Of a stretch of DNA of 64,000 nt, positions 9,481 to 46,200 are shown piece by piece. The DNA comes from a virus (taxonomy: Duplodnaviria; Caudoviricetes). The first letter of the stretch is position 1, and every line of letters begins with the position of its first letter. The position numbers and the translations under genes were made by a program. The notes under the pieces were generated by a model. The model ran no database searches and was not told the DNA's origin. It saw only the letters and a list, made by a program, of their open reading frames with translations. The stretch spans positions 19,686 through 83,685 of the IMG/VR virus record IMGVR_UViG_3300034197_000017; one strand, written 5' to 3'.

Positions 9481-9484
9481 TTAT

Positions 9485-20647: not shown

Positions 20648-20686
20648 ATAAATTTAATATGTTTTTATATTTATATTCTCGCATAA

Positions 20687-22261: not shown

Positions 22262-22311
22262 TGAAAATATCTATATACTTTAATTAATGCCTATATTATA
22301 ACCTGCCTACA

Positions 22312-23088
22312 ATGACTACTGAGAGCACTATTTTTAGATTGGATACTTATATCTATGCTTCACCTAGATATCATGCTTTTTCTAACCTAGAAACCTACAT
22401 TCTTCCAAATAATTACTCAAATTATGACAATACAAATAGAACCTACGATAAATACTTCCCTTGCTATGTACTTACTAGCTCTGATATCCCTACAATTCAG
22501 ATTACAGACCAAGAAAATAAAATATCTGAGTTAAAGGGGGATATTGTCTTACAGCAAAAGACCCATAAGAAGAATGGTAAAAGAATAGGTAAAAAGACTA
22601 ACCCAGATAGGCCATTTAATTATGGATTAGAGGATAGGACAGTTTATTACTCGGAATTCAGCTCACCTAAACTCCATCCTGGATGGTCTATACTTCAAAC
22701 AGCAGTAAAGACAGTAGATGATGTCACTACCTATACCCCTTATCTACTCATCAGAGCATTAGGAAATAATACCTCGTTAGAAAATTATTTTAGTACCGAT
22801 GTGAAGGATTCAGATACCTCTATAGAGGATTATTCTATTGGGACTATTATAAAAAATAAGAAAAAATACTGGAAATGTATTGGGACTACCAAATCACTTC
22901 CTACTGGAACTACTGACTCTAATTGGGAGCAAATTAATTTACCTACTAACGTATTTAATGCTGATGTCTATGGGGTAATGGGAAATAACATTAAATATAT
23001 GAAACAGGTCACTAGTAAGAGAAAATTCAATCCTATTGGTGATACAACTCTAATTACTTGGAATGTTTCTTACTTTGAAAGTAGATAA
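22312..23088 (+). CDS. Probable virion protein with C-terminal carbohydrate-binding-like module
   Basis: DYSIGTIIKNKKKYWKC...PTGTTDSNWEQI resembles CBM5/12-type modules. Confidence 0.45.
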   Translation: MTTESTIFRLDTYIYASPRYHAFSNLETYILPNNYSNYDNTNRTYDKYFPCYVLTSSDIPTIQITDQENKISELKGDIVLQQKTHKKNGKRIGKKTNPDRPFNYGLEDRTVYYSEFSSPKLHPGWSILQTAVKTVDDVTTYTPYLLIRALGNNTSLENYFSTDVKDSDTSIEDYSIGTIIKNKKKYWKCIGTTKSLPTGTTDSNWEQINLPTNVFNADVYGVMGNNIKYMKQVTSKRKFNPIGDTTLITWNVSYFESR

Positions 23089-23101
23089 ACACAGTAAAAC
23101 C

Positions 23102-23131
23102 AGAGTTAGTAATTAACTCTTTTCTAACGGG
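23102..23131. terminator. Hairpin between convergent genes, abutting a minus-strand CCCGTTAGAAAA motif
   Basis: AGAGTTA-gtaat-TAACTCT followed by TTTCTAACGGG. Confidence 0.5.
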
Positions 23132-23149
23132 AAGAATATTGTATTTATT

Positions 23150-24055
23150 CTATGCTTGGGAGACTGAAAGATTATTTAGTTCACTTCTTCTTCTTCTCAT
23201 AGAAGTAAGAGTATGTAGAGGTTCGTAGATATAGGTATGGAGTTTATATAGTAATCCATCTTTGATAAAGAATTTACCTAAGTCAGTACTATATTCTTCT
23301 CTCATCAATTCTCTATCAATGAAGTTATCTTTGCTAGTGATTGCCAATCTAACCTTTTTAATAGAGCTTTTTCTTAATCTATTTTTAATAGTACTAGGAT
23401 GTCTACCCAACTTGGCAGCAATCCCAGACTGAGAACATCCATATTTAAGAAATGAATAATCAGTCAGCATAGTAATCACTGAACCTAGCTTTTTAGTAAT
23501 TTGAATAAACCCATTTACCCCTGTGCATAGTTCAGAGGGTGTATTATCTAAATTAATATCAGTCTTAGATTCAATATAAGAGTCTACCATAGCAAAAATC
23601 TTCTCTGGACTCTTAAGCTTCTTAAAGAAGTTCTTATATCCAGAGTTAATATATTTCTGTTTGGCGGCATTAATAGAACTAGCTTGTAGAGCTTGTGCTG
23701 TAATCTCAGTGGCTTGTAACTTAAGTGTTTTTAAGTCAGATACTAAAATCTCAGCAGTACTTCCCCAATTACTAATCCCGTAGTTAATACAGACATGGAG
23801 TAGACTTTGTAAATATACAGTAACTCTATCTTTTTCTCTAATATAAGCTCTAAATAAGCCACCTTTTTTACCCTGATATAACCATTTTCTAACGGTTCTC
23901 TCAGAGACTTCTAAAGTGTTACTAATATCAGAGATAGAAAAGGTAGCCTTACCATTATCTGATAAAGCTCTACATACATACCAAAGTTTGCTGATAGAGC
24001 CAACCCTATCAGCAATAATGCTATGTAATCTTACTCCTCTATCCCCTAATAACAC
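23150..24055 (-). CDS. Protein with two helix-turn-helix motifs (regulator or replication initiator-like)
   Basis: SISDISNTLEVSERTVRKWL and SQSGIAAKLGRHPSTIKNRL. Confidence 0.55.
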   Translation of the reverse strand: MLLGDRGVRLHSIIADRVGSISKLWYVCRALSDNGKATFSISDISNTLEVSERTVRKWLYQGKKGGLFRAYIREKDRVTVYLQSLLHVCINYGISNWGSTAEILVSDLKTLKLQATEITAQALQASSINAAKQKYINSGYKNFFKKLKSPEKIFAMVDSYIESKTDINLDNTPSELCTGVNGFIQITKKLGSVITMLTDYSFLKYGCSQSGIAAKLGRHPSTIKNRLRKSSIKKVRLAITSKDNFIDRELMREEYSTDLGKFFIKDGLLYKLHTYIYEPLHTLTSMRRRRSELNNLSVSQA

Positions 24056-24073
24056 TTAATTTTAATTTATATT

Positions 24074-24283
24074 TTAGATATTACTGTACCTGCTATATAA
24101 TACGATATCTTCTAGGGGAATGTCAAGAGTCCACTCTTCCCTACCTCTATGTGCCTGCTGAGCTTCAAAAAATAGATTTCTAGTTGTACTATCATAGATT
24201 TTTTTGATAAATTGCATTTTTTCTTGGAAGTCTAGATAGTAATACTCCTCTTGTGGACTTTTAAGAATATTTAGAATTTCCAT
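24074..24283 (-). CDS. Hypothetical protein
   Basis: 69 aa ORF coupled to upstream tail genes. Confidence 0.45.
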   Translation of the reverse strand: MEILNILKSPQEEYYYLDFQEKMQFIKKIYDSTTRNLFFEAQQAHRGREEWTLDIPLEDIVLYSRYSNI

Positions 24284-26241
24284 GTTTTTACTATAGTTCC
24301 CTCTTCATCGTAAGATGTGGCTAGACATTCGTTGTTAGTAGATATTGTAACATCTAGTAAGTCAGCATCCCAGAATCCATTAGGAAATAAATGAGGAGTA
24401 TTAACTAAGTCTGCCTTCATATTGGGTGTAGGTTCTCTAACTATCACAGATTCTCCATCATTTACCCCTATATTTACCATCCCAATATTGATAGACTGTA
24501 ATGCCCCTCCTCCAAGAGCACCAATCATTTCTGAATATAGTAACTGGTTGGATTGCTGTCTACTTAATTCATCATTACCTAACCCACCACCAGTAATAGA
24601 CCCTCCTGTGTAGCCCGCTAGCTCCATTGCTGAGTCAGAGCCAAAACTCCTATCATAATAAGCTCCTGAAGCTCCTACATTGAATGGATTTAGCTCATAG
24701 TAATACACCCCATCATGACCCATTAGAGGGGGATTTAGATATTGAATTAAAAACTGTAATCTACCTGAAACTATATTGAAAAATCCAGTTTGGGGGTTGG
24801 GTAAGGAATCCCAAGTAGTTACTACTTTATTCCTATCCTGATAGATTTGCCCTAAATCTAACATTTCCCCTATTTGAGCCTTAATTCCAGTACTTTTAGC
24901 GAGGCTATACCGTTTAGTGTCTCCATAAGGAGTAATGCTGAGCACTTTTCCGTAAGAAAACCAGAATTTATAGTAGTCAGAATAGTCATATCCCCTACTT
25001 CCTGCTGATGTCTGTATCTCAAATGGATGGTTTATCTCACCCAGAGCTGAACCTAGCTCAATAGAGATGTAATTGGAGCTATTGAAGCTACTACAGAGGA
25101 TAGGTATAGGTATTCCAGTAGCTTTAGCAGGTCTAATTACGTTAGTATCCATAGAAATGCTGGAGATGGATAGTCTAGCAGCATCTGTACCATAGTCAGG
25201 GGATTGGAAGGGGCTATTTACCTTATAGTTAGTGTTTCCTACATAAGTAGCAGACCCTTTACTATATTCCTGTCTATTAACCTCTTGAATATCACCATTT
25301 TCTACCCTATAGGTCAAATCCAGTTGATAGGAGTGTGTTCTAGTAGTCTTTATCACTCCAGATGATAAAAACTCATTTAGGTCTGTTTTTTGATTAAACT
25401 CTCTAACTCTTTCATTTAGTTTCAAACTACCTCTATTCCAAGTAAAGGAGGAGCTAGGGGTGATTGAGTAAGCTACTATACAAGAGTTTCCTGTCCCTTG
25501 AAACTCATTCCCAGCTACAATATATTCACTTTGTAAATAAGGTTTGACGTTAGAGAATACAGGAATCCTATCTAATGGATTTATATGAGATGCAGACCAA
25601 GTTCCCCCACCTAAATATTTTAAGTTGGAAATATCAAAATTAAATTCAAAATAGCTACTCAAAGCACTGCTATCTAGGACGTAATCCAGTCTAGTAGCAG
25701 TATCTGGAGTTGAATTATCAATATGATAGATTCTCCATTGTTGGGTAAATGAGCCATCAGGAGTAGTCTTTTTGCTAACGCTATGGCAACCAGTAATTAT
25801 CCAATCATCCTTACCCTCTCCTGTAGCGATAACATACCATTGACATAAGGTAGATGGAGATTTGTAGATATAGACTGGTTTTTGAATTCCATACAAATCC
25901 TCATCTATAAAAACACCGTATGTTTGATTTAAGTCATTTTCAGACAGTACTATAGGAGATGGGAAACTTACAGAGAATCCACTCCTAATTGCTGCTGCAT
26001 TAACTCTAGTTTTTTGAGCTTCAATTTGAGCCTGAACTTCCTCGATAGAAAAGTTAGTAAGTTTTCTAACTGTTACTAACTTAAAGTCATGGTTTTTACT
26101 ATCTTTTCTAGGGTTACGTTTAGTGGTAATATCACTTCTGGTTAACGCTCTAGGATTCAGTAAAAATTCTTTATTGTCCTTGTCTCTCATATAGACAGAA
26201 CCTGTATTGTCCTGTCTTAAGGTAGGTCTAATATCAGTCAT
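24271..26241 (-). CDS. Tail/baseplate-associated structural protein
   Basis: 656 aa aromatic/Ser/Gly-rich beta protein in the minus-strand structural block. Confidence 0.5.
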   Translation of the reverse strand: MTDIRPTLRQDNTGSVYMRDKDNKEFLLNPRALTRSDITTKRNPRKDSKNHDFKLVTVRKLTNFSIEEVQAQIEAQKTRVNAAAIRSGFSVSFPSPIVLSENDLNQTYGVFIDEDLYGIQKPVYIYKSPSTLCQWYVIATGEGKDDWIITGCHSVSKKTTPDGSFTQQWRIYHIDNSTPDTATRLDYVLDSSALSSYFEFNFDISNLKYLGGGTWSASHINPLDRIPVFSNVKPYLQSEYIVAGNEFQGTGNSCIVAYSITPSSSFTWNRGSLKLNERVREFNQKTDLNEFLSSGVIKTTRTHSYQLDLTYRVENGDIQEVNRQEYSKGSATYVGNTNYKVNSPFQSPDYGTDAARLSISSISMDTNVIRPAKATGIPIPILCSSFNSSNYISIELGSALGEINHPFEIQTSAGSRGYDYSDYYKFWFSYGKVLSITPYGDTKRYSLAKSTGIKAQIGEMLDLGQIYQDRNKVVTTWDSLPNPQTGFFNIVSGRLQFLIQYLNPPLMGHDGVYYYELNPFNVGASGAYYDRSFGSDSAMELAGYTGGSITGGGLGNDELSRQQSNQLLYSEMIGALGGGALQSINIGMVNIGVNDGESVIVREPTPNMKADLVNTPHLFPNGFWDADLLDVTISTNNECLATSYDEEGTIVKTWKF

Positions 26242-26243
26242 AT

Positions 26244-29200
26244 TTAGCTAATAGGTAAAGGTAGGGTAGGTACATTAAAATCAGAAGTATATCTACAAAC
26301 TCCCTTAGTTATTCTTAAACTCTGTAAATATCCTGTAAATCTACCAATACTATACCCTAAATCAAAATCGGTACTAAATCCCACATTCCTAATCTTATCT
26401 TCCTGCTTGCCATCTATATATAAATAGGTATATTTAGTGGTATTACAAATTGCTATATGTATCCAGCTAAATGCATCTATATCTTCAGCTATAGCAGGCA
26501 TAGAGTAAGCGTCATTCTTATATAATCTAATCGAACTCTCATCTAATACATAATACAATTTAGGATTATTGGCATTGGTCAGTAACCCAGTCATTAATGT
26601 ACCTGTTCCACCAGTAATAGAGTTATCTACTACACCATCCCCTCCACCACTAGGAGGAATTACTTTTTCTAACTGGTCTATATTTCCTACCTCTAAGTAT
26701 TTCAACTCTACAACCCTATCTGTATAGGAATATAGTGGTTTAGTAAATTCTTCATCTAGAGCTACATCTAAGCTATAAACTAAGGCAGGATAATTATATT
26801 CCCATTCAGGAATAAATCCTTTACTTCCAACTAGCTCAGTTTCTTTTAATTTTGGTGAATTTAGAGTAATACCACTGGATATGTCCAAAGTAGTTAGACT
26901 TCCATCAACTATCTTATTCTTATATCCTGGAACATAGTTAGAAAAATTAGATAATGTCGAAATATCCAATAGATAGTTATCTGCCTCTGATACCTCACTC
27001 CAATTTATAGAGAAACTATCAGTAGTGATATTACTTGCGGGTAAAGCAGTAGGATTATTTAACTTTAATATGCTTGATTTATTAATATATAGATAAAATT
27101 CTATGGTGTAGTCAATGTTGTTAGGTAAATTTTGATTTAATGAGAAATTTATACTACTATTAACCCCATTGAAATATAAAGACTTAGCCAATCCAGATGG
27201 ACTAGTTACAGTGCTTATCTCTACATTATTGACTGTAAGACCTATTCCATAATCAGATAAATCTACAATCGAATTGGAAGTAGGTTGAATCAGTAATAAA
27301 ACATTATCCCAGCTAACATCTGGACTATAGCTAGGTATGATTACATCTCTAGTAAGGGTATTACTGACTAGATTTGAATTACCAGCTAAATCCTCTATCT
27401 GACCAGCATCTATTTTTACCGATATCTCCCCATTGCTACTGCCTATAAGCTCTAAACTGTAGGAAATATCTGAGTACTTAATTAAATTACTAACGAATCC
27501 ATTAGTAACAGTGAAATTATCCACTGTAATACCTCTACAAGGCTCTGTAAGCCCTACTATTACTTCTATGTGAGGATTAGTATTGTTAGGTTCTAGTGTC
27601 GTTATAGAGACTTCTAGAGGGCTATTATCAACAAATACCTGACTATTATTTGTAGTCTGAGTAAATGTTGCATTAGGTATACCAGGTTGGTTAGAGATAG
27701 CGATGGAGAATGGTATTTCTTGGTCTAAATCAGATTCTAATACTGTATAGGTAGCGGTATAGGAGTTATACTCCCCTACTGTAACTCCCACAGTAGAACC
27801 TAAAATATGAACTACTGGAGTTTGAGCCAATGGCAGAATAGAAGTGAACTTAAGAGTTATAGTATCTCCAGTAATAGCTACAGAGGAAGTAGAGTTACTA
27901 CTATAGATAGAGATATAGCTTAATAATTCAGTCTCTTCTATAATATTCGGCATTACAGAATAAGGTAAAGAGGGAATATTAACTTGATAGGCAGTATATA
28001 GAGCCTTACCGTAAGTCAATCTAACGTTAGATAGGTAGTAGGCATTATCGTTAACTCTATTTGGATAATATCCTACATATAAATCCCCTTTAGTGATATC
28101 AATAGGGGTATCAGATTGAATAATCTCCTGCCTTATCCCATTCCTATAGAATCTATAGGTATTTCCCTTCTTAGAGATAGCGAAATGAGGGTATTTTTGA
28201 ATTTGACTATATGCATTATTTGTCCACTCTACAAAAGTAGGTGTATCTATATCTTTAATGGTTATAGAGGAGAATATATTAGTAGAGTTACTTATAGTTC
28301 TCTGTACTCTTAGATTTCCATCGTTAGCCACAATACAGAAGCCAGTAGATGCATTTTCTACCGAGAGTATATGTGATACTTTATTGTTTATTTTGCTATT
28401 AATTCTGAGATAGAATTCAATAGTCCAGTCAGTTGATAGTTCTTCGGTAATTAGTGAACCGATAGAATCTAAATTATCGTACTTTAATCCTCCCTGCTCC
28501 AGTAAGGGGTTGACATCTAAACTAGAGCTAGTACCTAGAGGATAGACCACGTTAGAAAACTGAGTGGTATTGGGTACTATTTCCTCTAACTCAAGTCTAT
28601 TTGGACTGAAATCTCCATATAAGACACTAGTATTTAGAGGTAGCTGTAATATATCAAAGGATTCGCTGTAGATTCTTACTAACCTATTACTTTTTACTGA
28701 CAATGTTCCAGTAGCTGTAATACCAGTACCTTCTAGAGCCTGTATTGTAATTACACCATCTTTAATCGGCTCTATAGTTACTTGGTATATATAATTACTT
28801 TCATCTATTATTCTGCTATCAACTAGGAATCCATTCGATATGCCAATATTTTCAGGATTAAACTCACTTATAGCCCCAATAAAACTAATAGTAACTATAA
28901 AGCTATTCCTAACATAAGGATTACTTCCTGAAGTTAATACTGGTATAGGTGCTGCTTTATTAATTAAGTAAGTATCACCTTCAAAATTAAGTTCCCCTGA
29001 TTGATTAGATATAAAGTTATTAGTACCTTTGTATTTAACAGTTTTTCTATCTAGGAAATTTAAGGTCAACGAACCGTTACCTATACCCGAATCTGCTACA
29101 ACTCTATATTCGTAGTCAGATAGTTCAGTAATAGATGTCAAGGTAGCTCCACTGATACCATCCAATTGTACTAAGGTAAAGTCAGCTAAGACCAAGGAAT

Positions 29201-31250
29201 CTACTGGGTTATTGATGTAGACAATCCAAGACACAGACTGAGATGCTGTTGATACATTCAGGTCTGTCTTAGCGATATCAATCACCCTGACTCTAGCAGG
29301 AGCTAATTTATCTACCTCTAAGGCTAATGGCTGTAGTGAGGCATCATAACTAAAAGTATTAGCTAAAATAGTTGAGTATCTAGCAATATTCGTTACCCTC
29401 ACCCCTTTAATACCAAAACCCAGTCTAGCTAGAGATTCACTACCTCTCTTCCCAAAAATAGTTTCGTGGATACCCCCTAGAGTAAGTTCTAGATTATTGG
29501 AACTTTGATAAATAGTATCAGTGAAGGATATAGAGCTAATTACTGAACCATTTCTCAAGAAATATAGTACATTATTATATTTTTGAATTGCAATATGTAG
29601 GTTAGGTTCACTATAAGCAAAATTTACAGGTATAGTCTGATTTTCTAACGAGGGTATTTCATATCCAAATTTCTTATCGTATTGAGGATAGAATTTAATT
29701 TCTGTATCCGGTAAGACCTTAGCGGGAATTGATGTTCCTGAATTCCAGTTGATATTTGCTTGTGAAACATAAGTATTCCAGCTATCTCCATCACTAGATA
29801 TTTTTACAAAGAAATATAGTCCTGATATATACCAATCAACATTAAATTCATGGATTATTTTACATCCAATCTCTATCCCCTTTTTATTGGAAGAATTTAA
29901 CTTTAATAATGTTATTTCTCTTTCAAATTGACCATTAATTCCATCAATATTATAGGTTTCAAAGAATAATTGAATTAAGGATTGTTTGCTGGCATCATCG
30001 GATAGATAATAAGGGGATGAATTAACATATGGAGCTAAGAAAAACTCTAAAGTGAATTCATCTGAGTTAAATGTTACAGGAATATTCTTAGTGGTTAGTG
30101 TATTAATACCATCAATATAGAGAAATCCGGTAGAAAATGGTACTGATTGTCTCAGTAGAGATTGATTCGTAAAATGAGCTAGATTCTGGGAGTAATCATA
30201 CCTATCGTAATTTAGTGGAATATTAAATAAAGTCTCATCGTAATAATCATCAATCTTATTTTGATTTGAGCTATTTAGGAAAGGTAATTTTATTGAGTAA
30301 AAGGATTGAGGATATCTTGCTGCTTTAGTCAGTCTCAGATTGGAAATCCCACCAGAAAATGAGGTATCAATAGATTGTGCAGAACTAAAGTAAGCTGCCG
30401 TCCCATCTCTAGGTCTTAATGCTAGATGACTACCTATTCTCAGTCTATTTTCATAGGTATTCTCATTATTCGCTAATTCCAATGTTAAATCATGGTTGAA
30501 GCTATAGGTATTAGTTAGCTGATTATTTACAAAACAACGTAACTCATTACCGATTCTCTGTAATGCAACATGATACCAAGTTTTTCTAACTATATTGACT
30601 GTATTGATTTTATAGGAAGTACCGTGAGTTATGAATACTAAATCATTTCTATCAAGAAATACTCCATATCCCTTAGCAGACCCTGAATTAGGGGTATATG
30701 GGGTATATACAGTAGCTATATTATCAACATTTAACTGTACTTGAACATACTGTAAGCAACTTCCAACATGGAATATTGTTTGATAGCTCCAAGGCAAACT
30801 CACCTCATCTGCAAAAAAGCTAAATTCTATACTCCACTCACTATTACCTAGAGAATGATAGTCATTACCATTCTGTAATATCTCTAAATAGCTAGGTGTT
30901 ATTGTAGCTGAGGCTATATTTGAGTTAATTTCAGCAATTCTAGAGATATGGTTAGTTCTATTATTGATATAACCATAACTCTCTACTGAGATATCAGAGG
31001 TACTAGGAAATGTAGGATAATTTGCTGTGTTATAGTCAAATATTCTAAAATTTGATTCTATGTTAGTCCCTATTAGCTCTCTGACTTGATATTGATACTT
31101 ACTATAGTCTCTATAGAATGGTAAACCTTTAGTATTAGTTTCTTTGTCAAACTTACATAAAAGTATTACTTCATTCCAATAAGGGTCAGATGTTATAGTC
31201 TCAATAGTTGAACTAGTGAGTAAGAACTGTACTAACTGATTTATATTCAT
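26244..31250 (-). CDS. Giant multi-domain tail adhesin (LamG/ConA-like, Ig-like and FN3 domains)
   Basis: Three LamG-like repeats (WSIEF..WYHVALQR..LRLTKAARY; FTLEF..; WTIEF..LTYGKALY), Ig-like repeats (FIVTISF..ENIGISNG) and FN3-like segments (ASNITTDSFSINWSEV). Confidence 0.75.
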   Translation of the reverse strand: MNINQLVQFLLTSSTIETITSDPYWNEVILLCKFDKETNTKGLPFYRDYSKYQYQVRELIGTNIESNFRIFDYNTANYPTFPSTSDISVESYGYINNRTNHISRIAEINSNIASATITPSYLEILQNGNDYHSLGNSEWSIEFSFFADEVSLPWSYQTIFHVGSCLQYVQVQLNVDNIATVYTPYTPNSGSAKGYGVFLDRNDLVFITHGTSYKINTVNIVRKTWYHVALQRIGNELRCFVNNQLTNTYSFNHDLTLELANNENTYENRLRIGSHLALRPRDGTAAYFSSAQSIDTSFSGGISNLRLTKAARYPQSFYSIKLPFLNSSNQNKIDDYYDETLFNIPLNYDRYDYSQNLAHFTNQSLLRQSVPFSTGFLYIDGINTLTTKNIPVTFNSDEFTLEFFLAPYVNSSPYYLSDDASKQSLIQLFFETYNIDGINGQFEREITLLKLNSSNKKGIEIGCKIIHEFNVDWYISGLYFFVKISSDGDSWNTYVSQANINWNSGTSIPAKVLPDTEIKFYPQYDKKFGYEIPSLENQTIPVNFAYSEPNLHIAIQKYNNVLYFLRNGSVISSISFTDTIYQSSNNLELTLGGIHETIFGKRGSESLARLGFGIKGVRVTNIARYSTILANTFSYDASLQPLALEVDKLAPARVRVIDIAKTDLNVSTASQSVSWIVYINNPVDSLVLADFTLVQLDGISGATLTSITELSDYEYRVVADSGIGNGSLTLNFLDRKTVKYKGTNNFISNQSGELNFEGDTYLINKAAPIPVLTSGSNPYVRNSFIVTISFIGAISEFNPENIGISNGFLVDSRIIDESNYIYQVTIEPIKDGVITIQALEGTGITATGTLSVKSNRLVRIYSESFDILQLPLNTSVLYGDFSPNRLELEEIVPNTTQFSNVVYPLGTSSSLDVNPLLEQGGLKYDNLDSIGSLITEELSTDWTIEFYLRINSKINNKVSHILSVENASTGFCIVANDGNLRVQRTISNSTNIFSSITIKDIDTPTFVEWTNNAYSQIQKYPHFAISKKGNTYRFYRNGIRQEIIQSDTPIDITKGDLYVGYYPNRVNDNAYYLSNVRLTYGKALYTAYQVNIPSLPYSVMPNIIEETELLSYISIYSSNSTSSVAITGDTITLKFTSILPLAQTPVVHILGSTVGVTVGEYNSYTATYTVLESDLDQEIPFSIAISNQPGIPNATFTQTTNNSQVFVDNSPLEVSITTLEPNNTNPHIEVIVGLTEPCRGITVDNFTVTNGFVSNLIKYSDISYSLELIGSSNGEISVKIDAGQIEDLAGNSNLVSNTLTRDVIIPSYSPDVSWDNVLLLIQPTSNSIVDLSDYGIGLTVNNVEISTVTSPSGLAKSLYFNGVNSSINFSLNQNLPNNIDYTIEFYLYINKSSILKLNNPTALPASNITTDSFSINWSEVSEADNYLLDISTLSNFSNYVPGYKNKIVDGSLTTLDISSGITLNSPKLKETELVGSKGFIPEWEYNYPALVYSLDVALDEEFTKPLYSYTDRVVELKYLEVGNIDQLEKVIPPSGGGDGVVDNSITGGTGTLMTGLLTNANNPKLYYVLDESSIRLYKNDAYSMPAIAEDIDAFSWIHIAICNTTKYTYLYIDGKQEDKIRNVGFSTDFDLGYSIGRFTGYLQSLRITKGVCRYTSDFNVPTLPLPIS

Positions 31251-32851
31251 CCAATGTCTCTGTTACTCAATACTATTCTTTTCTTAATTGTACTGGTATT
31301 ATCTCTAGTTAATACAACAACGAATAAATCTATTTTTCCATTACCGCTAAATCCTGGAATAGCTCCACCAGGAAAGAGAAGTGAATTATGAAATTCTACT
31401 ATACCTGTTCTCTGTCTTAGCTCAATCACAATAGATTTAGTAGTATTTTGACCTATTGAGGCAGTTACATTGATTGTAGTAGAATCTCCATCTTCATTAG
31501 GTGTGGTGATAATGAAATAATCATAATCTTGACTATCTAAGTCCAATGTATAGGTAGTACTAGTATTGATGGTAATAGTAGTAGTCTTAATTGAATTATC
31601 CAGTAACGCCAATGTATCGTTACTTAGCTTATCCGGGGTTACAGAGGCATCAGCTAGTACCGAGGATAGAACTAACCATCTACCGATTGTAGGGGCATTA
31701 TTGGGGATTAAAACGGTATCCCCATCATCATCTAGGTCAGAAGAGGAGTCAAACGCATAAATATTCTTCTTACTTTGAACATAACGTGCCTGTCTATTTC
31801 TATATACTGTACTGGGTAAGGCTTTCAGTTCAGATAAATCAGCTACTGGAGAGGAGAAATAAACTACCTCATCAACAAAGGTATAGTCATTCAGTTTAGG
31901 ATAGACAGATATAAAACTACCGTCTAGTAATGTAGTATCTACATCTAAGTCTGGGGTGACTTCTATCACTAACGCTGAATTAACAGGTAAGTTTTTACTA
32001 ATATCAATTACGGTAGCTGGGTAATTTACTACAGTCCCTACATATAAAATATCAGTGGTATCTAACGTATAATTACTTAAATTTAGATATCCAATTACTT
32101 TTACATTGAAGTTTAGAGATATAGACTTATCTGAACAATATGAATTTAAGTCCAACTCTCCAGATTCTAAGGAATTTGACCCATTATTTACTATGTAATA
32201 TTTTATAGACGGGAAGATTAAACCATCTTGAATTGTAGACGATATTAAGTTATCCTCATCTACTGCATATAGCTCTAAATTAGATGTAAAATCTGTTTCC
32301 ACTAAAGTATTAGATTTTACTAAAATCCATCTTCCAGTGTCAGCATCGATAACTGTAATATTATCTACTTCCTCCTCACTTCCCTCTATATACTCATATA
32401 CTTTATTAACTGAGGATATCTTTACCCTCATACCGTTACTTAAATTATCTATAGGTAAATCTGTAGTTACTATTCCAGTTCCAGTAAGTATAAAGGAATT
32501 ATTAAATTCAAAATTAGATAGGGATAGTGCAGTTATCTGGTCTGATTGATATATTTCCTGCTTATAGATAACTTTCCCGTTAGAAAAAGTATTAGTTGTT
32601 GAGGATATGATGATAAATTCTCTCCAATCCTCATAGGAAAACTGACTAAATATAGAAGCATGGATAATTAATTTTGAATCGTCAGGGATTACTAAACTCG
32701 TCATGGAGGATATATCGTTATATCCCGCTCTATTTTTTGCTTTTACCCAGAAGTAATAAGTCTCACCATTTCCTTGAATATCCCCACCAGTTTGAACCGT
32801 AATTTCAGGAGATGGTAATACCTCTCTACCTGATGCATAGCGAGTTAACAT
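31247..32851 (-). CDS. Tail fibre/baseplate-associated protein
   Basis: VADLSELKAL..DDDGDTVLIPN..GRWL fibre-type motif; FN3-like N-terminus. Confidence 0.55.
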   Translation of the reverse strand: MLTRYASGREVLPSPEITVQTGGDIQGNGETYYFWVKAKNRAGYNDISSMTSLVIPDDSKLIIHASIFSQFSYEDWREFIIISSTTNTFSNGKVIYKQEIYQSDQITALSLSNFEFNNSFILTGTGIVTTDLPIDNLSNGMRVKISSVNKVYEYIEGSEEEVDNITVIDADTGRWILVKSNTLVETDFTSNLELYAVDEDNLISSTIQDGLIFPSIKYYIVNNGSNSLESGELDLNSYCSDKSISLNFNVKVIGYLNLSNYTLDTTDILYVGTVVNYPATVIDISKNLPVNSALVIEVTPDLDVDTTLLDGSFISVYPKLNDYTFVDEVVYFSSPVADLSELKALPSTVYRNRQARYVQSKKNIYAFDSSSDLDDDGDTVLIPNNAPTIGRWLVLSSVLADASVTPDKLSNDTLALLDNSIKTTTITINTSTTYTLDLDSQDYDYFIITTPNEDGDSTTINVTASIGQNTTKSIVIELRQRTGIVEFHNSLLFPGGAIPGFSGNGKIDLFVVVLTRDNTSTIKKRIVLSNRDIG

Positions 32852-33027
32852 TATTTTGTAAATCCTTTACTTGAATTTCCTACTATAGTTAGAGGAATTT
32901 GATATTTACTGGACTTAAATTTAATATTCAGGTTATTTCCTTGATAATACAATTTAGGTCTTAGGGCTAAAAATGATTTCTTGAAATTATCTAATGTAGT
33001 AGTGTCAGTACCTATTGTTATCCTCAT
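32851..33027 (-). CDS. Small hypothetical protein (58 aa, below ORF-track cutoff)
   Basis: MRITIGTDTTTLDNFKK...GFTK*; its stop overlaps the next ATG. Confidence 0.55.
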   Translation of the reverse strand: MRITIGTDTTTLDNFKKSFLALRPKLYYQGNNLNIKFKSSKYQIPLTIVGNSSKGFTK

Positions 33028-33045
33028 GTTTATAGTATTACTATT

Positions 33046-35667
33046 TTAATTTATATCTACCCATCTAGCAAAATTAGAGTTAATCTTATCTTTGGATACA
33101 CCGAAATTCTGAGATGTATTCCCCTCAATCTCAATCTTAACTGATTTATTACTACCTGAAGTACTGACATTAGGGACTGTTTTATCTCTTAAATCAATAG
33201 TAGATAGTATTCCAGCATCAAACCCTATCTGTTGAGCAAATGGAATTGAATTAGAGTAATGTACGGATAAGGATACTCTCTTAGTAACCCAGCTTTCCCT
33301 ACTTCCCGGAATTGCTATCTTAGCGTTAACGAGTGAAGGTAGGGATAATGTCTTGAATAAGGTAAAATTCAATATCCCAGATGCCGATGCCCCAGAGCTA
33401 AATATACTCTTTACTAACGAGTTCTTTGCACCTATAATAGCCTGCTGTTTTGTCTTAGCTCCATCTACATTTATAGAAGGAACTACTTTTGAATTAACAG
33501 TAGAGCTACTACAGGATATCAATGTGGTAGTATCAGCATAAACACTCCCATCCCCCTTAACTTCCTCATATAAAGCTTTTCTAACGGTTGCAGATGGAGG
33601 TCTGCCTTGACTTATTGAGTAAGTAGAGTTAGTTACAAAACTCTTATAACTATTATCTTGGGCATTTCTAAATGAGGACTGACTCAGATACATATCCTCC
33701 CTTCTAGATAGGGTAGTGGGATATATATTACTGAATTCCCCCATAGATATAGTTTCAGGATTGACTCCTATGAGTCCATAATCATTAACCGTCATGTACT
33801 CGTGAGGCTTATAGTAAGTCCCACCTATACCTTGAGAGCTATTTACAGAGTTAATTACATCACTAACATTTGTATACTCTTGATAGTAATTTCCAATTGT
33901 ATATTTTGTATTCTTAGATGGAAGTACAGTATATTTAGTAAATTCGTACTCCTCGGAACCTGTAGTAATAGATATTGGGTTGGAACCAAAATAATTTCTG
34001 GCTAGGGGATTATATGCGGGATTTCCTGATACCCCTACAGAAGATTTATATCTACTTTCAGATATCAACATCAATTCAGGCATCCAGTCTACATCTGGGA
34101 ATAGTACCGGAATTACCTCCCCACTTCCACCACCTAAACTAGTGCCCGATTTTGGAATATACTCTATATCCCAATTAACATCATCCCCATCTTTATAAAA
34201 TCTGGAGAATGGTTTTATAGCATAATCTGTCCTTTCAAAAATGGGTATTTTTCTATATAAATACTGTTCTAGACCTACTTTTGCTTGATATAGTGACAAA
34301 TTATATAGCTGTGTAGATTCCTTATCTCCCTGAGCTAATGTATCCTTTAAGTCAATTAAACCTTTTAACTGTAACCAAGCATTAATGCTCCCATCAGTCC
34401 AATTACTAGAATCTTCTTGAGCAAACCGTTTAATTTCCCATCCAACAGTCTCTTTGGCTACCAAAACCTCTATATTAGAGCTAATTACTTTTCTATATTC
34501 ACTATCAATCTCAATAGGTTCTAACGTACCATTTTGATTTCTGATATAAGGAGTAATACTAGGAGAAAATGACTCATAAATATAAGTAGTTTTCTTCAGC
34601 TCAAGACATCTCCAAACCATACCGTTAGAAAAATTAGCATCATCGGGATATCCATACTTCTGAGCCTTAATACTGGAAAGTAATTCTTGATATGCATTTC
34701 CTGTAGTCAATACATCCTCTGCAATACCCTCTAAAACAGTAGAAGATTGAGCATTGGGCTGTTCTGGGTCAGCTACCAACTCTAATGCAGCATGAGCAAA
34801 TCCAAATACACCGCTTAATTCTGCATTAGGCTGTCCATGCTCATATAGAGTTATCTTGAATTGTTTCGTAGTACCAGAATTATCTATCATTACACTCAAA
34901 TCCCTAGGAAATTTAGAGTTATCTGATGTTTCTGGAGGTGCAATATGAGGATTAAAATCTCCCTCATATAAGCAATATTTAGCAGTCCTTAATTTTATAA
35001 CCTTCCTAGCTGAATTAGTCTTACTATCCTCTGCTTTAGTCCAAGTAAGTACCGTATCCTTATATGTATCCTGTATGTTCTTTGTAATTGTTACATTTGA
35101 TGTAGACTTCCAAGGAACTAGACCAGATATACCTAAATATCCAAAAGAAATACTTTCCCTACCAAATATATAGGCTAATTTACCGTTTACAACTCCCATA
35201 GGGTCACATAACTGCTTTAAAGTTACAGTTTCCTCCCTAGATGGTTGCTTTGAAAACTCTACATCAAAGTCATCTACAATTACCGTACCTTTAGCAAAAC
35301 TGATTAACTGACCAATAGAAAATATATAACTATCCTCAGTCTTACTTTTAGCGGTATTTTTCTTAGCTTCTACAAAATCTAAAACTGATATAGAGTCTTC
35401 ATATGTCTTCTTAGAGATATGAACATACGTTCTAGTTACAGTAGTAAGTAAATCCCCTTCCATCATGGTAGGAATGTCATTAGATATGGATTCTAGGTAG
35501 AAAATCATACCTAATAAAGTCAGTCTTTCCCCTATCTGATATTTCTTCTTATTACCATACTCAGCGATAGTTATTTTAGGGTAATCCTCACTGGTCAACT
35601 CAATATTAACTATACCGTTTGATATGGATAACCCTATATTGCCTATTCCGTAATTACTTAATACCAT
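33046..35667 (-). CDS. Large tail/baseplate hub-like structural protein
   Basis: 873 aa ORF in the structural block. Confidence 0.5.
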   Translation of the reverse strand: MVLSNYGIGNIGLSISNGIVNIELTSEDYPKITIAEYGNKKKYQIGERLTLLGMIFYLESISNDIPTMMEGDLLTTVTRTYVHISKKTYEDSISVLDFVEAKKNTAKSKTEDSYIFSIGQLISFAKGTVIVDDFDVEFSKQPSREETVTLKQLCDPMGVVNGKLAYIFGRESISFGYLGISGLVPWKSTSNVTITKNIQDTYKDTVLTWTKAEDSKTNSARKVIKLRTAKYCLYEGDFNPHIAPPETSDNSKFPRDLSVMIDNSGTTKQFKITLYEHGQPNAELSGVFGFAHAALELVADPEQPNAQSSTVLEGIAEDVLTTGNAYQELLSSIKAQKYGYPDDANFSNGMVWRCLELKKTTYIYESFSPSITPYIRNQNGTLEPIEIDSEYRKVISSNIEVLVAKETVGWEIKRFAQEDSSNWTDGSINAWLQLKGLIDLKDTLAQGDKESTQLYNLSLYQAKVGLEQYLYRKIPIFERTDYAIKPFSRFYKDGDDVNWDIEYIPKSGTSLGGGSGEVIPVLFPDVDWMPELMLISESRYKSSVGVSGNPAYNPLARNYFGSNPISITTGSEEYEFTKYTVLPSKNTKYTIGNYYQEYTNVSDVINSVNSSQGIGGTYYKPHEYMTVNDYGLIGVNPETISMGEFSNIYPTTLSRREDMYLSQSSFRNAQDNSYKSFVTNSTYSISQGRPPSATVRKALYEEVKGDGSVYADTTTLISCSSSTVNSKVVPSINVDGAKTKQQAIIGAKNSLVKSIFSSGASASGILNFTLFKTLSLPSLVNAKIAIPGSRESWVTKRVSLSVHYSNSIPFAQQIGFDAGILSTIDLRDKTVPNVSTSGSNKSVKIEIEGNTSQNFGVSKDKINSNFARWVDIN

Positions 35668-36510
35668 TTACTTATTTATTAGATATATAAAGTCAGCATT
35701 CTCTAGATACCCATCTCTGTAAAAATTTAGATAAAAATACAACTGCCCATAGCTATAAATAGAGTTATATATACTAGAATAGTAGGCCACTTCTGTATAT
35801 TCTATATCACTTACAGGCTTTTCAAGTACGGTGACATTCTTTACTATGGGTATAGCTCTATTCATCGCTACCTTACTAGACTTAGCACCTATAGTATATA
35901 AGCTATGTCTCTGCTCTATTGTTAATGCCATATCCTCAGTAAAAGTCAAAGTTCTGAGATAATCGGCAGTGACTTCCTGACTAATAAACTGTCCTGTAGT
36001 TAACTTAAAACTAGTACAGGTAGGATTTATAAAAATATTTATATCCTCAATAGTATCTATATTGGATATAGTAAATCTCAATGTACAGTATATATCCTCA
36101 TCAGTTTCGTTAAAGAGGACTATATCCTCTAATTCAGACCCTATAACCTCACTTTTTATAATATAAGTTCTAGTTGCAGAGAAGTCTGTAATACTGGTTT
36201 CAGTGTAAGCTATATCATCTTCTGTATATATAGATACTAGTTGCTGATAAAACTCTAAGTCATCTCCTGACTTCTTTTTTAGGAGTACGGGTAGATAGGT
36301 ACTATTAAACTGTAAATAAATTAAACATCCATGTAAGTAAGCTGATGGTTGTAAAACATATGCAGTATTTAGTTTTTTAACTAAAAACTGTTTTGAAGGA
36401 GTTTTATCTAGCTTAAAAGAATTCCCTGATTGCCTTACAGTTTTCGATGCTATCCACATCACCCTATACTTACCCTCCCAGATGTAAAACTTACTGCTGT
36501 CAGACTCCAA
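35668..36510 (-). CDS. Hypothetical (tail module)
   Basis: 280 aa ORF abutting the downstream gene. Confidence 0.5.
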   Translation of the reverse strand: MESDSSKFYIWEGKYRVMWIASKTVRQSGNSFKLDKTPSKQFLVKKLNTAYVLQPSAYLHGCLIYLQFNSTYLPVLLKKKSGDDLEFYQQLVSIYTEDDIAYTETSITDFSATRTYIIKSEVIGSELEDIVLFNETDEDIYCTLRFTISNIDTIEDINIFINPTCTSFKLTTGQFISQEVTADYLRTLTFTEDMALTIEQRHSLYTIGAKSSKVAMNRAIPIVKNVTVLEKPVSDIEYTEVAYYSSIYNSIYSYGQLYFYLNFYRDGYLENADFIYLINK

Positions 36511-36815
36511 GATGAGAACTTAGCTATTCCAGCTATTCTAAACTTAGCACCCTCCGTTACGTCTATTACTGTCCAACTTTTTCCCCTAAAGGTGAATGTT
36601 GCTCCAAAACCAGTCTTACCAGGAGCAGGTGTAGGAGCTGTAGTAATACCCTTAAATGTGATAGTTACGGAAGGTAAACTATAATTTCCTGAAATTACAA
36701 TACCACCATGTTCCACTAAAGCCGTTATACCTTGGGCAGATATTTTTCCGAAACTTACACTATCTTCAGGAATAGGGATATCAAATAATTTCTCATTTTC
36801 ATAATGGATAGACAT
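36459..36815 (-). CDS. Hypothetical (first gene of the minus-strand tail block, distal-tail-like size)
   Basis: 118 aa beta-rich ORF. Confidence 0.5.
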   Translation of the reverse strand: MSIHYENEKLFDIPIPEDSVSFGKISAQGITALVEHGGIVISGNYSLPSVTITFKGITTAPTPAPGKTGFGATFTFRGKSWTVIDVTEGAKFRIAGIAKFSSWSLTAVSFTSGRVSIG

Positions 36816-36959
36816 TCTAGTTAGAAAATTACTTACTCTATTTATATCTTAATACTTTTATGTTAATTAAGATTCAGAGGTACTCGTTTCACTGCGTCTC
36901 TGTTCGATTTCTTCCAATAGTGTACCATAGGACAAAAATAGGTAAAAATACCTAATATA

Positions 36960-36989
36960 TTGACAAAATCTAAATTTAGGTGATTAAAT
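36960..36989 (+). promoter_or_regulatory. Sigma70-type early promoter
   Basis: TTGACA at 36960; weaker -10 (TGaTTAAAT). Confidence 0.55.
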
Positions 36990-36993
36990 TAGA

Positions 36994-37326
36994 TTGGAGT
37001 ATATAAGAGTGTATATGGATTTAAGGTTAGAGGAAAATTGGGTAGATAGTGAAGGTAATCCAGATGGAGCTATTTCATGTGGAATTGGATATACTATAGC
37101 TTGGCAAAGAGGCTCACTAGAACATGGAAGAACAGGTGCTTTTCTAATTGAGGTGTTAACGTCTTGTTTTAAACAATTAGAGCGTTATCAAGACGGTAAA
37201 TTCGCTTGTAATGAGAATGAGTTGGCATTATTTCACATAAATCAAGCATTAATTCTTCTAAATCAAAGACTAGACCGTAGAAAAGAACAAGGAACTCTAG
37301 GAACACATAAAACAGATGCTAAATGA
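36994..37326 (+). CDS. tad1: Tad1-like anti-defence sponge for cyclic nucleotide immune signals (likely ATG 37015)
   Basis: IAWQRG..GAFLIEVL..QLERYQDGKFACNENELALFHINQALILLNQRLDRRKEQGTLGT parallels recalled Tad1 [58 protein letters not shown]. Confidence 0.8.
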   Translation: MEYIRVYMDLRLEENWVDSEGNPDGAISCGIGYTIAWQRGSLEHGRTGAFLIEVLTSCFKQLERYQDGKFACNENELALFHINQALILLNQRLDRRKEQGTLGTHKTDAK

Positions 37327-37531
37327 TACTTACTATGTACCAGAAGGAATAATCACTGATACCTCTGAGGAACTTACAGTACATATTTCACCTGATAATG
37401 TAAATAAACTTCAAATTTTAGCCTTAATTCAAGACTGTAATATAGATGAAGTCTTATCGATGGCTATAGACACCGAGTTCACTATCAAACAAGATGTTTA
37501 TCCTACCGGACTTGACACTTTAATCCACTGA
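37316..37531 (+). CDS. Hypothetical protein
   Basis: 71 aa coupled ORF. Confidence 0.5.
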   Translation: MLNDTYYVPEGIITDTSEELTVHISPDNVNKLQILALIQDCNIDEVLSMAIDTEFTIKQDVYPTGLDTLIH

Positions 37532-37548
37532 ACTAAATCTAAATTAAA

Positions 37549-37767
37549 ATGAATAGTAGTATTTATTACAAGACATTTAGATGCCCGGAATGTGGCTCTA
37601 CTGAACCATCTAGTTTGTTTATTAAAGAGTCACCTCTATGTAATGCATGTCTAGCTAATTTTCTATCGGCTCATGTTCCAACAATGGAGATTACCTCTAA
37701 TAAGTATAGAAATCAGCATCAATTGGATATCTTGAAACAAGGTAGTAATGAAGAGGAGTCTGAATAA
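37549..37767 (+). CDS. Small zinc-ribbon protein
   Basis: CPECG...CNAC. Confidence 0.55.
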   Translation: MNSSIYYKTFRCPECGSTEPSSLFIKESPLCNACLANFLSAHVPTMEITSNKYRNQHQLDILKQGSNEEESE

Positions 37768-37997
37768 TGAGTTATCCCTATTTTATTTTTGCTGGAAGTA
37801 ATTTTTATGCTAAAGGTGGATGGAAAGACTATATTGATAGGTTTTATAGTCTTGATGATGCCCGTAGAGCTATTGTTGAAACTGACTCTGCCTTTATTAT
37901 TGGTGGTGTAGAGTATGAATGGTATCAAATTGTAGAAATTGGAGATGGGACTATTGGCTCATCTATCATTGAATCTAAAGGTGAAGCTTGTACATAA
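37767..37997 (+). CDS. Conserved phage hypothetical protein
   Basis: YAKGGWKDY..F.SLDDA..YEWYQIV pattern common in phages. Confidence 0.55.
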   Translation: MSYPYFIFAGSNFYAKGGWKDYIDRFYSLDDARRAIVETDSAFIIGGVEYEWYQIVEIGDGTIGSSIIESKGEACT

Positions 37998-38014
37998 ACT
38001 TTAGATAGGTAAAA

Positions 38015-38040
38015 ATCCCCTACTTTTTCTAGCAGGGGAT
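38015..38040. terminator. Bidirectional terminator between convergent genes
   Basis: ATCCCCT-actttttctagc-AGGGGAT with A/T-rich flanks. Confidence 0.65.
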
Positions 38041-38064
38041 TAATATTTTAATCTAAATTTAAGA

Positions 38065-38523
38065 TTAGACTGAAGCAACAACCAAGTCTGTTAGACAGGT
38101 AACTTGGAAAGAGCTATAGTTGGCACTGCTACTACCAATCTGGATAGTACCACCATCCTGATATGAGAAGGGAATACATTGAACCGTTCTGTAGGTGAAC
38201 ATGCCAGCGCCAGCAGGGTTATTTAGGTCAATCTCACCCAAAGCCAGAGACTCAGCATTAGCATTGCATATTTCAATGATTTCATCGGCCTTAGTGGTAT
38301 TAATACCCTTTAAATCAAACGTATAGGTACGTAGTTGAATGTTAACTGTAGTAACAAAATTACCCATGATAACAGAGGGGCTTGCTAACGATACAGTACC
38401 CTGTGAAATAGCATCAGGTGAGACTGGTACGTTAAATACTTTTGTATACTGAATGTTTAAGTTGGATGCCATATGGATATAAATATAAATTATTTTCTTA
38501 TATATCCATAATATCATTTCCAA
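38065..38523 (-). CDS. Isolated structural-like protein (likely ATG 38472, 135 aa), tail-tube candidate
   Basis: Beta-rich Thr/Ser/Val composition and capsid-like codon usage; inverted inside the early region. Confidence 0.5.
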   Translation of the reverse strand: MEMILWIYKKIIYIYIHMASNLNIQYTKVFNVPVSPDAISQGTVSLASPSVIMGNFVTTVNIQLRTYTFDLKGINTTKADEIIEICNANAESLALGEIDLNNPAGAGMFTYRTVQCIPFSYQDGGTIQIGSSSANYSSFQVTCLTDLVVASV

Positions 38524-38559
38524 ATATGCCCTAAATTAAAATTATTTTTCTAACTGGGG

Positions 38560-38588
38560 TTGACAAATAAATCTAAATAACGTAATCT
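38560..38588 (+). promoter_or_regulatory. Sigma70-type early promoter
   Basis: TTGACA-N17-TAATCT. Confidence 0.75.
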
Positions 38589-38618
38589 ATAAAAAGTCAC
38601 CTGTTATCGGAGAATATA

Positions 38619-39014
38619 ATGTCTAATACATATGATGTGGATTCCCCTCCTTTCTATACACATCCTTCATATATTGGATGTGCTAATGAGTTGCTTCCTT
38701 CTGATGAAAGGCTAGATAAATACGATGCTCAATATAGTCAATATGGTTTTGATGATACCTGTACTTGGAATTTAGACCTAAGTATCGTCAAGTTCATTCT
38801 TCCTAGATTGAAGAGATTTAGAGAAGTATCTAATGGGTATCCAGCAAGACTTAACTCAATGGCTGAATATCACGAAGTACTAGATAAAATCATAAAGTCA
38901 TTTACTATTATGGATAAACAAAACCAATATCTAGTAGCTGAGGAAGAATCAGATAAAGAAGTAAAAGAAGGTCTACACTTATTTGTAGAATATTTAAGTG
39001 ATTTGTGGTGGTAA
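38619..39014 (+). CDS. Conserved phage hypothetical protein
   Basis: TWNLD..ILPRLKRF..GYP..EGLHLF.EY..DLWW pattern widespread in phages. Confidence 0.65.
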   Translation: MSNTYDVDSPPFYTHPSYIGCANELLPSDERLDKYDAQYSQYGFDDTCTWNLDLSIVKFILPRLKRFREVSNGYPARLNSMAEYHEVLDKIIKSFTIMDKQNQYLVAEEESDKEVKEGLHLFVEYLSDLWW

Positions 39015-39017
39015 GGT

Positions 39018-39278
39018 ATGCAAGCCTCATTCAAAATAGAAAATACTAAAACAGAGGAAGGTAAATTTAGGTCAACCTATTGGGTCATAGATAGAATAAG
39101 TCAATTTTCCCCTGAATTACCTGAACATCTATATAGAGGATGGTTATTTTATGAGGAATTTATCTTTATCTCAGATGTAATAACTCCAGAAAACATCACT
39201 ATCAATGAACAAGCTCCTATAGCTGATGTAAAGTTCCTACTAGATTACTTTCAGATTAACTATGGACAATCAATCTAA
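39018..39278 (+). CDS. Hypothetical protein
   Basis: 86 aa ORF. Confidence 0.5.
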   Translation: MQASFKIENTKTEEGKFRSTYWVIDRISQFSPELPEHLYRGWLFYEEFIFISDVITPENITINEQAPIADVKFLLDYFQINYGQSI

Positions 39279-39735
39279 TTTCAGATTAGGATATAGCTCT
39301 GCATTATCTAAGGTAGACTCTATCCTAGGTTCTTACAATTTTGAGGAACCTTATTATGCTACAGAAGCTGATTATGTTTCAGCTAGAGATAGACAAGCAT
39401 TAATTAACGAATTAAGGCAAGAAATGACTCTATTAAATTTCACAACTCCTAGTTTGTATGACCAGTTAAGTAAATACCTTACTGATTTGGGATATGCAGC
39501 AACAGTAAATACAAGAGAATGGAGGATTGAAAGAAGTACACATCTAAATTTCACTATCGGTCTATTTACTAGATTCGTTAGTAATACTGAAGAGATAAAT
39601 CTAGAATTTAACTTTGATGATATCTATAGCAATAAAAAACGTATCACCTACCCAGTGAAATGTTTTTCTGTTCTAGAAGCAGAGGGTTATATCAGGGTAA
39701 TGCATGTTCTCAATGTCCAATTTGATTCTAATTAA
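39262..39735 (+). CDS. Hypothetical protein
   Basis: 157 aa ORF. Confidence 0.5.
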   Translation: MDNQSNFRLGYSSALSKVDSILGSYNFEEPYYATEADYVSARDRQALINELRQEMTLLNFTTPSLYDQLSKYLTDLGYAATVNTREWRIERSTHLNFTIGLFTRFVSNTEEINLEFNFDDIYSNKKRITYPVKCFSVLEAEGYIRVMHVLNVQFDSN

Positions 39736-46018: not shown

Positions 46019-46100
46019 AGGTAACAGATAGAGATATCTGACGGGTAATGGCTAAGTTGAACTATAAGTAAATTAAGATAAAACTTGATTTACTTTTCCT

Positions 46101-46173
46101 GTGCTTTTGGCCGATTGGGGAGGCAACGAACTCATAATTCGTCTTCAGAGTGGTTCGATTCCACTAAGGCACA
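46101..46173 (+). tRNA. tRNA with CAU anticodon (elongator Met or lysidine Ile2; not initiator)
   Basis: Acceptor GTGCTTT/AAGGCAC; ACGAA-CTCATAA-TTCGT; AGTGG-TTCGATT-CCACT; lacks the initiator GGG/CCC stem; no CCA. Confidence 0.9.
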
Positions 46174-46200
46174 TTTGACCAATAACATCTAGTAGAAAAC

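Follow-up and report, generated by a model that had tools for sequence, protein, structure and literature searches.

In the published structures of CbTad1, the Tad1 sponge of a Clostridium botulinum prophage, the adenine of gcADPR is stacked between F82 and R109, N92 acts as the base reader, and the diphosphate is held by R57, R109 and R113. F87 buttresses the ribose, and the pocket is closed by a C-terminal lid that includes G120 and N122. The same pocket is shared by cGAMP. Cyclic trinucleotides are bound elsewhere, at the three-fold interface of the hexamer, via R90 and T97 in CbTad1 and R88 and T95 in CmTad1; this arginine–threonine pair is a property of the characterised members and not a requirement of the Tad1 family. 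Ten Tad1 homologues drawn from the breadth of the family were assayed and every one inhibited type I Thoeris, and Cyanobacteria are among the hosts, with the Tad1 of a Leptolyngbya sp. PCC 7375 prophage inhibiting Thoeris (Leavitt et al. 2022, 10.1101/2022.05.03.490397). A later survey collected 1,587 non-redundant Tad1 proteins from IMG/VR v3 and tested 20 of them; diverse Tad1 proteins inhibited both Thoeris and CBASS, and about one quarter of the tested sponge homologues showed no inhibition of any of seven systems (Hadary et al. 2025, PMC12393519). The capsid-anchored protein gp184 of phage phiKZ is likewise treated as a Tad1 in the literature.

The locus described here lies in a stretch of 64,000 nucleotides (the window) within an 83,685-bp IMG/VR virus record (IMGVR_UViG_3300034197_000017) with an estimated completeness of 58%. 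The major capsid protein shares 54% identity with those of Pam2 and PA-SR01, two siphophages of freshwater Pseudanabaena, and identity to the same phages is 43% for the DNA polymerase and 36% for the large tail protein. Beyond these two phages almost nothing close was found in the isolate collection, and a megablast of the region against isolate phages gave no matches. A 76-aa ORF on the minus strand (19689–19919) has a full-length, sub-threshold match to the Pfam family NblA (E 0.0019, 19 bits against a cut-off of 25). NblA is a phycobilisome degradation protein, and the match is a hint of a cyanobacterial host. The sequence is present unchanged in three peat metagenome DNA runs, one of which may be the run it came from; the search of sequencing runs listed no RNA run with the sequence and no contig that joins across the gene cassette described below. 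Given the similarity to Pam2 and PA-SR01, the NblA-like match, and the occurrence in peat metagenomes, it is a reasonable inference that the phage is a Pam2-like cyanophage from peat. ARAGORN finds one tRNA in the window, for Met (CAT), at 46100–46174.

The gene of interest is on the plus strand, where a reading frame is open from 36994 to 37326 with in-frame starts at TTG 36994, GTG 37009 and ATG 37015. The preliminary description took the gene to be this entire frame. The open frame is indeed there, but translation most likely begins at ATG 37015, giving a product of 103 aa, rather than at TTG 36994. The protein database’s gene call for the contig is the 103-aa product from ATG 37015, and the start of the closest homologue (87% identity) lies no more than two residues from it; for these reasons we take the gene as 37015–37326. 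TTG 36994 would be located at or before the start of the transcript if the TTGACA promoter considered below is real. The in-frame extension upstream of the ATG (36994–37014, plus strand), which holds the TTG and GTG codons, is probably a 5′ untranslated region, with GGAG at 36997–37000. The protein is predicted to consist of an N-terminal three-stranded sheet (residues 5–30), a two-helix hairpin (helices 44–60 and 66–92), and a C-terminal lid with the sequence G-T-L-G-T-H.

We consider it likely that this gene encodes a genuine Tad1-family sponge, whose ligands and anti-defence activity would, by analogy, resemble those of CbTad1 and CmTad1. When the protein was compared with all PDB chain sequences using phmmer, only Tad1 proteins and phiKZ gp184 were retrieved below E 1e-3, with CbTad1 (7UAV) and the Tad1 chains of the 8KB series at E 2.5e-8 (query residues 6–98 against chain residues 35–123) and CmTad1 at E 5.6e-4. 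A profile built from 75 relatives of similar length, hereafter the clade, matched CmTad1 at E 6.9e-16 and CbTad1 at E 2.5e-15, and the alignment has no gaps between the [FW]Q-x-G loop and the C-terminus. The residue-level resemblance to Tad1 asserted in the preliminary description is therefore upheld by both searches, and the C-terminal R..R..[NG].LGT segment that it singled out is matched column for column: R85-x3-R89-x3-G93-T-L-G-T97 in the phage protein corresponds to R109-x3-R113-x3-N-V-L-G-T in CbTad1. Homologues of the gene product are 47–87% identical to it, and a search of 1.84 billion representatives with close homologues returned 3,197 relatives at E ≤ 1e-3. The clade also has invariant residues of its own (G18, G19, G25, W30, Q31, N40-G41-A42, and C65).

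Family databases were less informative about this protein. Its precomputed Pfam label in the protein database is PF24729.3 (Acb2_Tad1_hairpin), which is marked ‘weak’ for one homologue. A local Pfam-A search, containing version.2 of PF24729 (gathering cut-off 27 bits), assigned no family at E ≤ 10 to the protein and none to its 13 closest homologues. NCBIfam yielded no matches for the protein, and among the PHROGs it matched only families of unknown function.

The predicted fold agrees with the sequence comparisons. An AlphaFold2 model based on the 75-sequence alignment (pLDDT 94.7, pTM 0.82) places an N-terminal antiparallel β-sheet ahead of a C-terminal two-helix hairpin, which is the Tad1 layout. 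Foldseek comparison of this model with the PDB gave 20 entries at E ≤ 1e-3, every one a Tad1 (best E 4e-7, TMq 0.68–0.76), and the best entry from outside the family had an E-value of 0.35. With VIA, the model aligned to CmTad1 over 96 of its 103 residues (Z 10.2, 2.0 Å) and to CbTad1 over 97–98 of 103 (Z 9.8), model residues 1–100 pairing with chain residues 12/13–124; the best match that was not a Tad1 covered the helical hairpin alone (Z 7.3). The preliminary description had named the lack of a structural match to Tad1 as grounds for refutation; the comparison went the other way, the predicted model’s top 20 PDB entries in Foldseek all belonging to the family. A first AlphaFold2 model, built from 14 sequences, had a poor N-terminal half (pLDDT 75) and matched only through the hairpin; it was superseded by the 75-sequence model. 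Membership of the Acb2 family was considered and rejected, as phmmer gave no sequence matches to Acb2 and Foldseek placed it at rank 47 with the first model (E 3.8), which is chance level.

Residues of the ligand pocket were mapped from the HMMER alignments, with roles taken from the published CbTad1 and CmTad1 contacts. Six positions of the adenine and diphosphate pocket are kept: CbTad1 F82 corresponds to Y58, which retains the aromatic character, and F87, N92, R109, R113, and G120 correspond to F63, N68, R85, R89, and G96. The ribose-linkage contacts give a mixed picture. G55 is kept as G33, but R57 is replaced by L35, at a position where CmTad1 also lacks an arginine; R78 by Q54, where 54 of the 75 clade members have R; and N122 of the lid by H98. 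CbTad1 H29 has an uncertain equivalent, either S21 or C22. At the trinucleotide site neither contact is kept, N66 taking the place of R90 and F73 that of T97. The same division runs through the clade as a whole. The columns of the gcADPR/dinucleotide pocket are nearly invariant (N in 74/75, R in 74/75, R in 73/75, and F in 66/75 members), and those of the trinucleotide site carry R in 5/75 and T in 7/75, with positions of the CbTad1/CmTad1 hexamer interface varying across the 75 members. According to the VIA aligned lengths, CbTad1 has about 15 residues more in the β-hairpin that contributes to the pocket.

From this pattern we infer conservation of the dimer’s gcADPR pocket, which may also take dinucleotides, and probable absence of the trinucleotide site, with a predicted loss of cA3/cAAG binding. 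Because N66 and F73 replace R90 and T97 and these positions vary across the clade, the predicted activity is sequestration of the Thoeris signal and of cyclic dinucleotides, probably without cA3 binding. The preliminary description had raised the possibility of a different ligand specificity. That idea survives in part: the cyclic-trinucleotide contacts are missing from the aligned sequence, and a shift in specificity is predicted.

The genomic setting of the gene is that of an insertion. The tad1-like gene leads four tightly packed plus-strand genes, with overlaps at two of their junctions, in an insert of 1.25 kb (36816–38064) flanked by minus-strand genes. The second gene (37316–37531, 71 aa) belongs to no known family and shares its first 11 nt with the end of the tad1 gene. 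The third (37549–37767, 72 aa) has a zinc-ribbon-like CxxC...CxxC motif, with a match to Zn_ribbon_IS1595 that falls below the cut-off (E 0.0044), and the fourth (37767–37997, 76 aa), whose start overlaps the stop of the third by 1 nt, belongs to phrog_1411, a family of unknown function. Genes two to four had no PDB or family matches of note. To the left of the cassette is a minus-strand tail-module gene (36459–36815) homologous to Pam2_34 (E 2e-13), which is 52% identical to gene 5460–5816 of L029, a 146-kb IMG/VR relative; to the right is another minus-strand tail-module gene (38065–38523), homologous to Pam2_33 (E 3e-27). The two neighbours are weak paralogues of each other (31% identity over 59 aa). 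In Pseudanabaena phage Pam2, 6 bp separate Pam2_33 from Pam2_34, and in L029 the homologues of both flanking genes have 21 bp and no insert between them. As the flanking genes are directly adjacent in both relatives, we interpret 36816–38064 as an insertion in the opposite orientation. The claim in the preliminary description that this is the very first early gene is accordingly abandoned: the gene heads an opposite-strand insert between two minus-strand tail-module genes.

A direct-repeat search identified related sequences at the two ends of the cassette. The left flank (36938–36978, plus strand) reads ATAGGTAAAAATACC ... AATCTAAATTTA and the right flank (38005–38061) reads ATAGGTAAAAATCCC ... 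AATCTAAATTTA with a hairpin inside, such that the short direct repeats ATAGGTAAAAAT[A/C]CC (36938 and 38005) and AATCTAAATTTA (36967 and 38050) are common to both. The hairpin at the right end (38014–38041) has folding energies of −18.8 and −21.8 kcal/mol (z −3.3 and −5.4). It is terminator-like for the minus-strand gene 38065–38523, since UUUUU follows it on that strand; on the plus strand it would form a weaker terminator for the cassette. A terminator scan of 36300–39300 reported no terminators; this hairpin was missed because its plus-strand loop is too long, and it was found through the repeats.

Other features of the tail module were observed alongside the insertion. Pam2_38 (9439–9711), annotated as a ‘putative anti-CRISPR protein’, is a lone opposite-strand gene a few genes further along the same tail module, which suggests that the module tolerates small counter-defence inserts. 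In the window, the plus strand carries the tape-measure homologue (11564–17341) and the minus strand the distal tail genes (18680–38523), whose counterparts in Pam2 are Pam2_33 to Pam2_43. In Pam2 and L029 the tape-measure gene lies directly upstream of the distal tail genes on one strand, and the distal tail block therefore appears to be inverted in the window’s phage.

Upstream of the tad1-like gene is a promoter-like site (36960–36990, plus strand) consisting of TTGACA at 36960–36965, TG at 36981–36982 and TTAAAT/TAAATT at 36984–36990, the TG-n-TTAAAT portion following TTGACA by about 18 nt. The preliminary description had placed a TTGACA promoter ahead of the gene. The hexamer is present at 36960, but it is statistically undistinctive: TTGACA-type patterns are not enriched in the window relative to shuffled sequences (8 against 5.8 expected and 7 against 8.35 expected), and a scan for consensus promoters did not list the site. 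This promoter-like site is the one feature from which early expression of the tad1-like gene might be deduced.

The site overlaps one copy (36967–36975) of the 9-mer AATCTAAAT, which has 15 copies in the window where 3.1 would be expected, a count reached in none of 100 shuffles. Its positions include 36967, 37536, 38050, 38570, 42547 (minus strand), 45048, 45054, 46570 and 46857. Several copies are located just upstream of plus-strand genes and two directly follow TTGACAAA, the second TTGACAAA...AATCTAAAT arrangement being at 38560, ahead of a long block of plus-strand genes. The 9-mer may be a regulatory element of the phage, and its distribution hints that the cassette shares this element with plus-strand genes.

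A tblastn search of the protein against 50,697 phage records gave 162 matches, in phages of Bacillus, Pseudomonas, Vibrio and others; the matches included no named cyanophage, and neither Pam2 nor PA-SR01 was hit. Pattern scans of 185,579 species genomes recovered the close subfamily in only five, all of them cyanobacteria (Calothrix PCC 7103, Phormidesmis, and three Nostoc). Of 401 genomes sampled in the phylum to which the Calothrix genome belongs (cyanobacteria), three gave a match; two of these, the Calothrix and one Nostoc, had already come up in the pattern scans. Homologues occur on phage- or prophage-like contigs with unrelated neighbours and on 17 further viral contigs, and one metagenomic homologue adjoins an integrase gene and HetZ in a cyanobacterial contig. 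No shared neighbours of the sponge gene were found across 26 other loci, and at none of these loci is it accompanied by any of the three partner genes or two flanking genes. Such unshared neighbours fit a sponge gene moving on its own, as proposed by Leavitt et al. (10.1101/2022.05.03.490397). Many sponge relatives are tandem-duplicated or, like phiKZ gp184, fused into much longer proteins (up to 781 aa).

A search for Thoeris in the five sponge-carrying cyanobacterial genomes turned up a ThsB-TIR in one Nostoc and demonstrated a canonical system in none of them. In this genome, Nostoc sp. NMS7, which also carries a Tad1-like gene, the locus at 1486–3295 has the ThsB-type TIR gene directly followed by a gene for a SEFIR/TIR-STAND NTPase. 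With SEFIR/TIR-STAND rather than ThsA as the neighbour of the ThsB-TIR, we do not regard the locus as canonical Thoeris.

By analogy with CbTad1 and CmTad1, the phage protein would form at least a homodimer. Pockets at the dimer interface would enclose TIR-made glycocyclic ADP-ribose (3′cADPR / 1″-3′ gcADPR), and might also take cyclic dinucleotides of the cGAMP type, whereby the host’s Thoeris effector, and perhaps a CBASS effector as well, would never be switched on. Binding of cA3/cAAG would be absent from this scheme, in keeping with the lack of conservation of the three-fold-interface residues of the CbTad1/CmTad1 hexamer. We envisage that a Pam2-like, probably cyanobacterial, siphophage from peat took up the four-gene cassette on the opposite strand, between two neighbouring tail genes, and that the cassette appears to bring its own promoter-like site and terminator hairpin.

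The features that distinguish the clade from characterised Tad1 proteins could instead reflect a Tad1-fold sponge whose main ligand is not 3′cADPR, but 2′cADPR, His-ADPR, N7-cADPR or an undescribed molecule that serves as the signal of cyanobacterial TIR, CD-NTase or related systems. Such a ligand would accord with the clade-specific invariant residues, with replacement of the ribose-contact positions (L35, Q54 and H98), and with a β-hairpin shorter than that of CbTad1. Shifts in specificity are known in sponge families (Hadary et al. 2025, PMC12393519), and the ThsB-TIR of the sponge-carrying Nostoc adjoins a gene that is not of the ThsA type. Nonetheless, we consider a different main ligand unlikely, given that the residues for adenine stacking, Hoogsteen reading and diphosphate binding are conserved and that ten of ten diverse Tad1 proteins blocked type I Thoeris in 2022 (10.1101/2022.05.03.490397). 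There is a similarly small chance that the short W-Q-x-G / N-G-A-F clade, marked by its shortened hairpin, the missing trinucleotide Arg/Thr and a His for the lid Asn, is a specificity variant for a differing cyanobacterial TIR or nucleotidyltransferase signal. If this were true, co-crystallisation could identify the signal, as Tad1 did for gcADPR.

Roles outside signal sequestration find still less favour. The domain might act in a virion-associated or regulatory small protein, seeing that in phiKZ this domain is borne by a protein anchored to the capsid, gp184 (PDB 8Y6V), and that many family members are duplicated or fused to other domains. Yet gp184 is itself called Tad1 in the literature and its C-terminus is released and injected, the 103-aa protein has no extra domain, and its most conserved columns are those that contact the ligand, all of which make a non-sponge role very improbable. 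Slightly less probable again is that the ORF is a passenger, silent or in decay, which chance has preserved in the inserted fragment and which is unexpressed during infection. The promoter-like site is weak, as would be expected of a passenger, but the frame is intact with its key residues conserved, homologues of 47–87% identity exist, the gene overlaps the next one in a compact operon, and the sequence is unchanged in the three peat metagenome runs. The reading we prefer is that of a Tad1-family sponge carried on a small insert, and it can be set against the systems already described.

CbTad1 (7UAV, 7UAW, 8SMD, 8KBE–8KBH) resembles the phage protein in fold, pocket residues, and the C-terminal L-G-T lid, but the two are only 24–31% identical, and CbTad1 has about 12 more residues at its N-terminus and a hairpin extended by about 15. 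CmTad1 (8KBB–8KBD) is its best match by both structure and profile (Z 10.2 and E 6.9e-16). The two have in common an N-G loop and a Cys before the E-N motif (C65 here, C87 in CmTad1), whereas the cA3/hexamer residues of CmTad1 (R88, T95, K96, Q98, E99, M102, W103 and K106) are not conserved. The best single-sequence match in the PDB is phiKZ gp184 (8Y6V chain I, E 4.9e-9), which shares the C-terminal hairpin including R-R-K-E-Q-G-T; gp184 has 230 aa with an N-terminal capsid-anchoring part, and the protein studied here is a stand-alone domain. Acb2 (T4 Vs.4, 7UQ2) is a further small phage nucleotide sponge with a helical hairpin in common, and Pfam groups these hairpins as Acb2_Tad1_hairpin, but unlike our protein Acb2 has no N-terminal sheet.

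According to the preliminary description, a cyanophage member would imply Thoeris or CBASS pressure in cyanobacterial hosts. Tad1 in cyanobacteria had already been reported in 2022 (Leavitt et al., 10.1101/2022.05.03.490397), the breadth of the family is likewise published, and the gene is a further member. The Leptolyngbya sp. PCC 7375 Tad1 of that study, as read by eye from the DNA in the supplement, is a 119-aa protein of the classical CbTad1 type with a longer N-terminus, which keeps the Arg of S-C-R-E-N and the Q-W-M interface segment. By the same by-eye comparison, the phage protein differs from it in belonging to the shorter W-Q-x-G / N-G-A-F clade. That clade is itself represented in Table S3 of Leavitt et al., where we found three members, from Mycolicibacterium, an actinobacterial bin and Candidatus Amesbacteria, that bear no ‘tested’ flag. 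To these known systems the present locus adds a likely free-living cyanophage, Pam2-like and from peat, among the phages with a Tad1 sponge, and it offers a clean example of the movement of counter-defence genes between phages, here within a small self-contained insertion into a tail operon. It also yields one testable prediction with respect to CbTad1 and CmTad1, namely that the gcADPR/dinucleotide pocket has been kept and the trinucleotide pocket lost.
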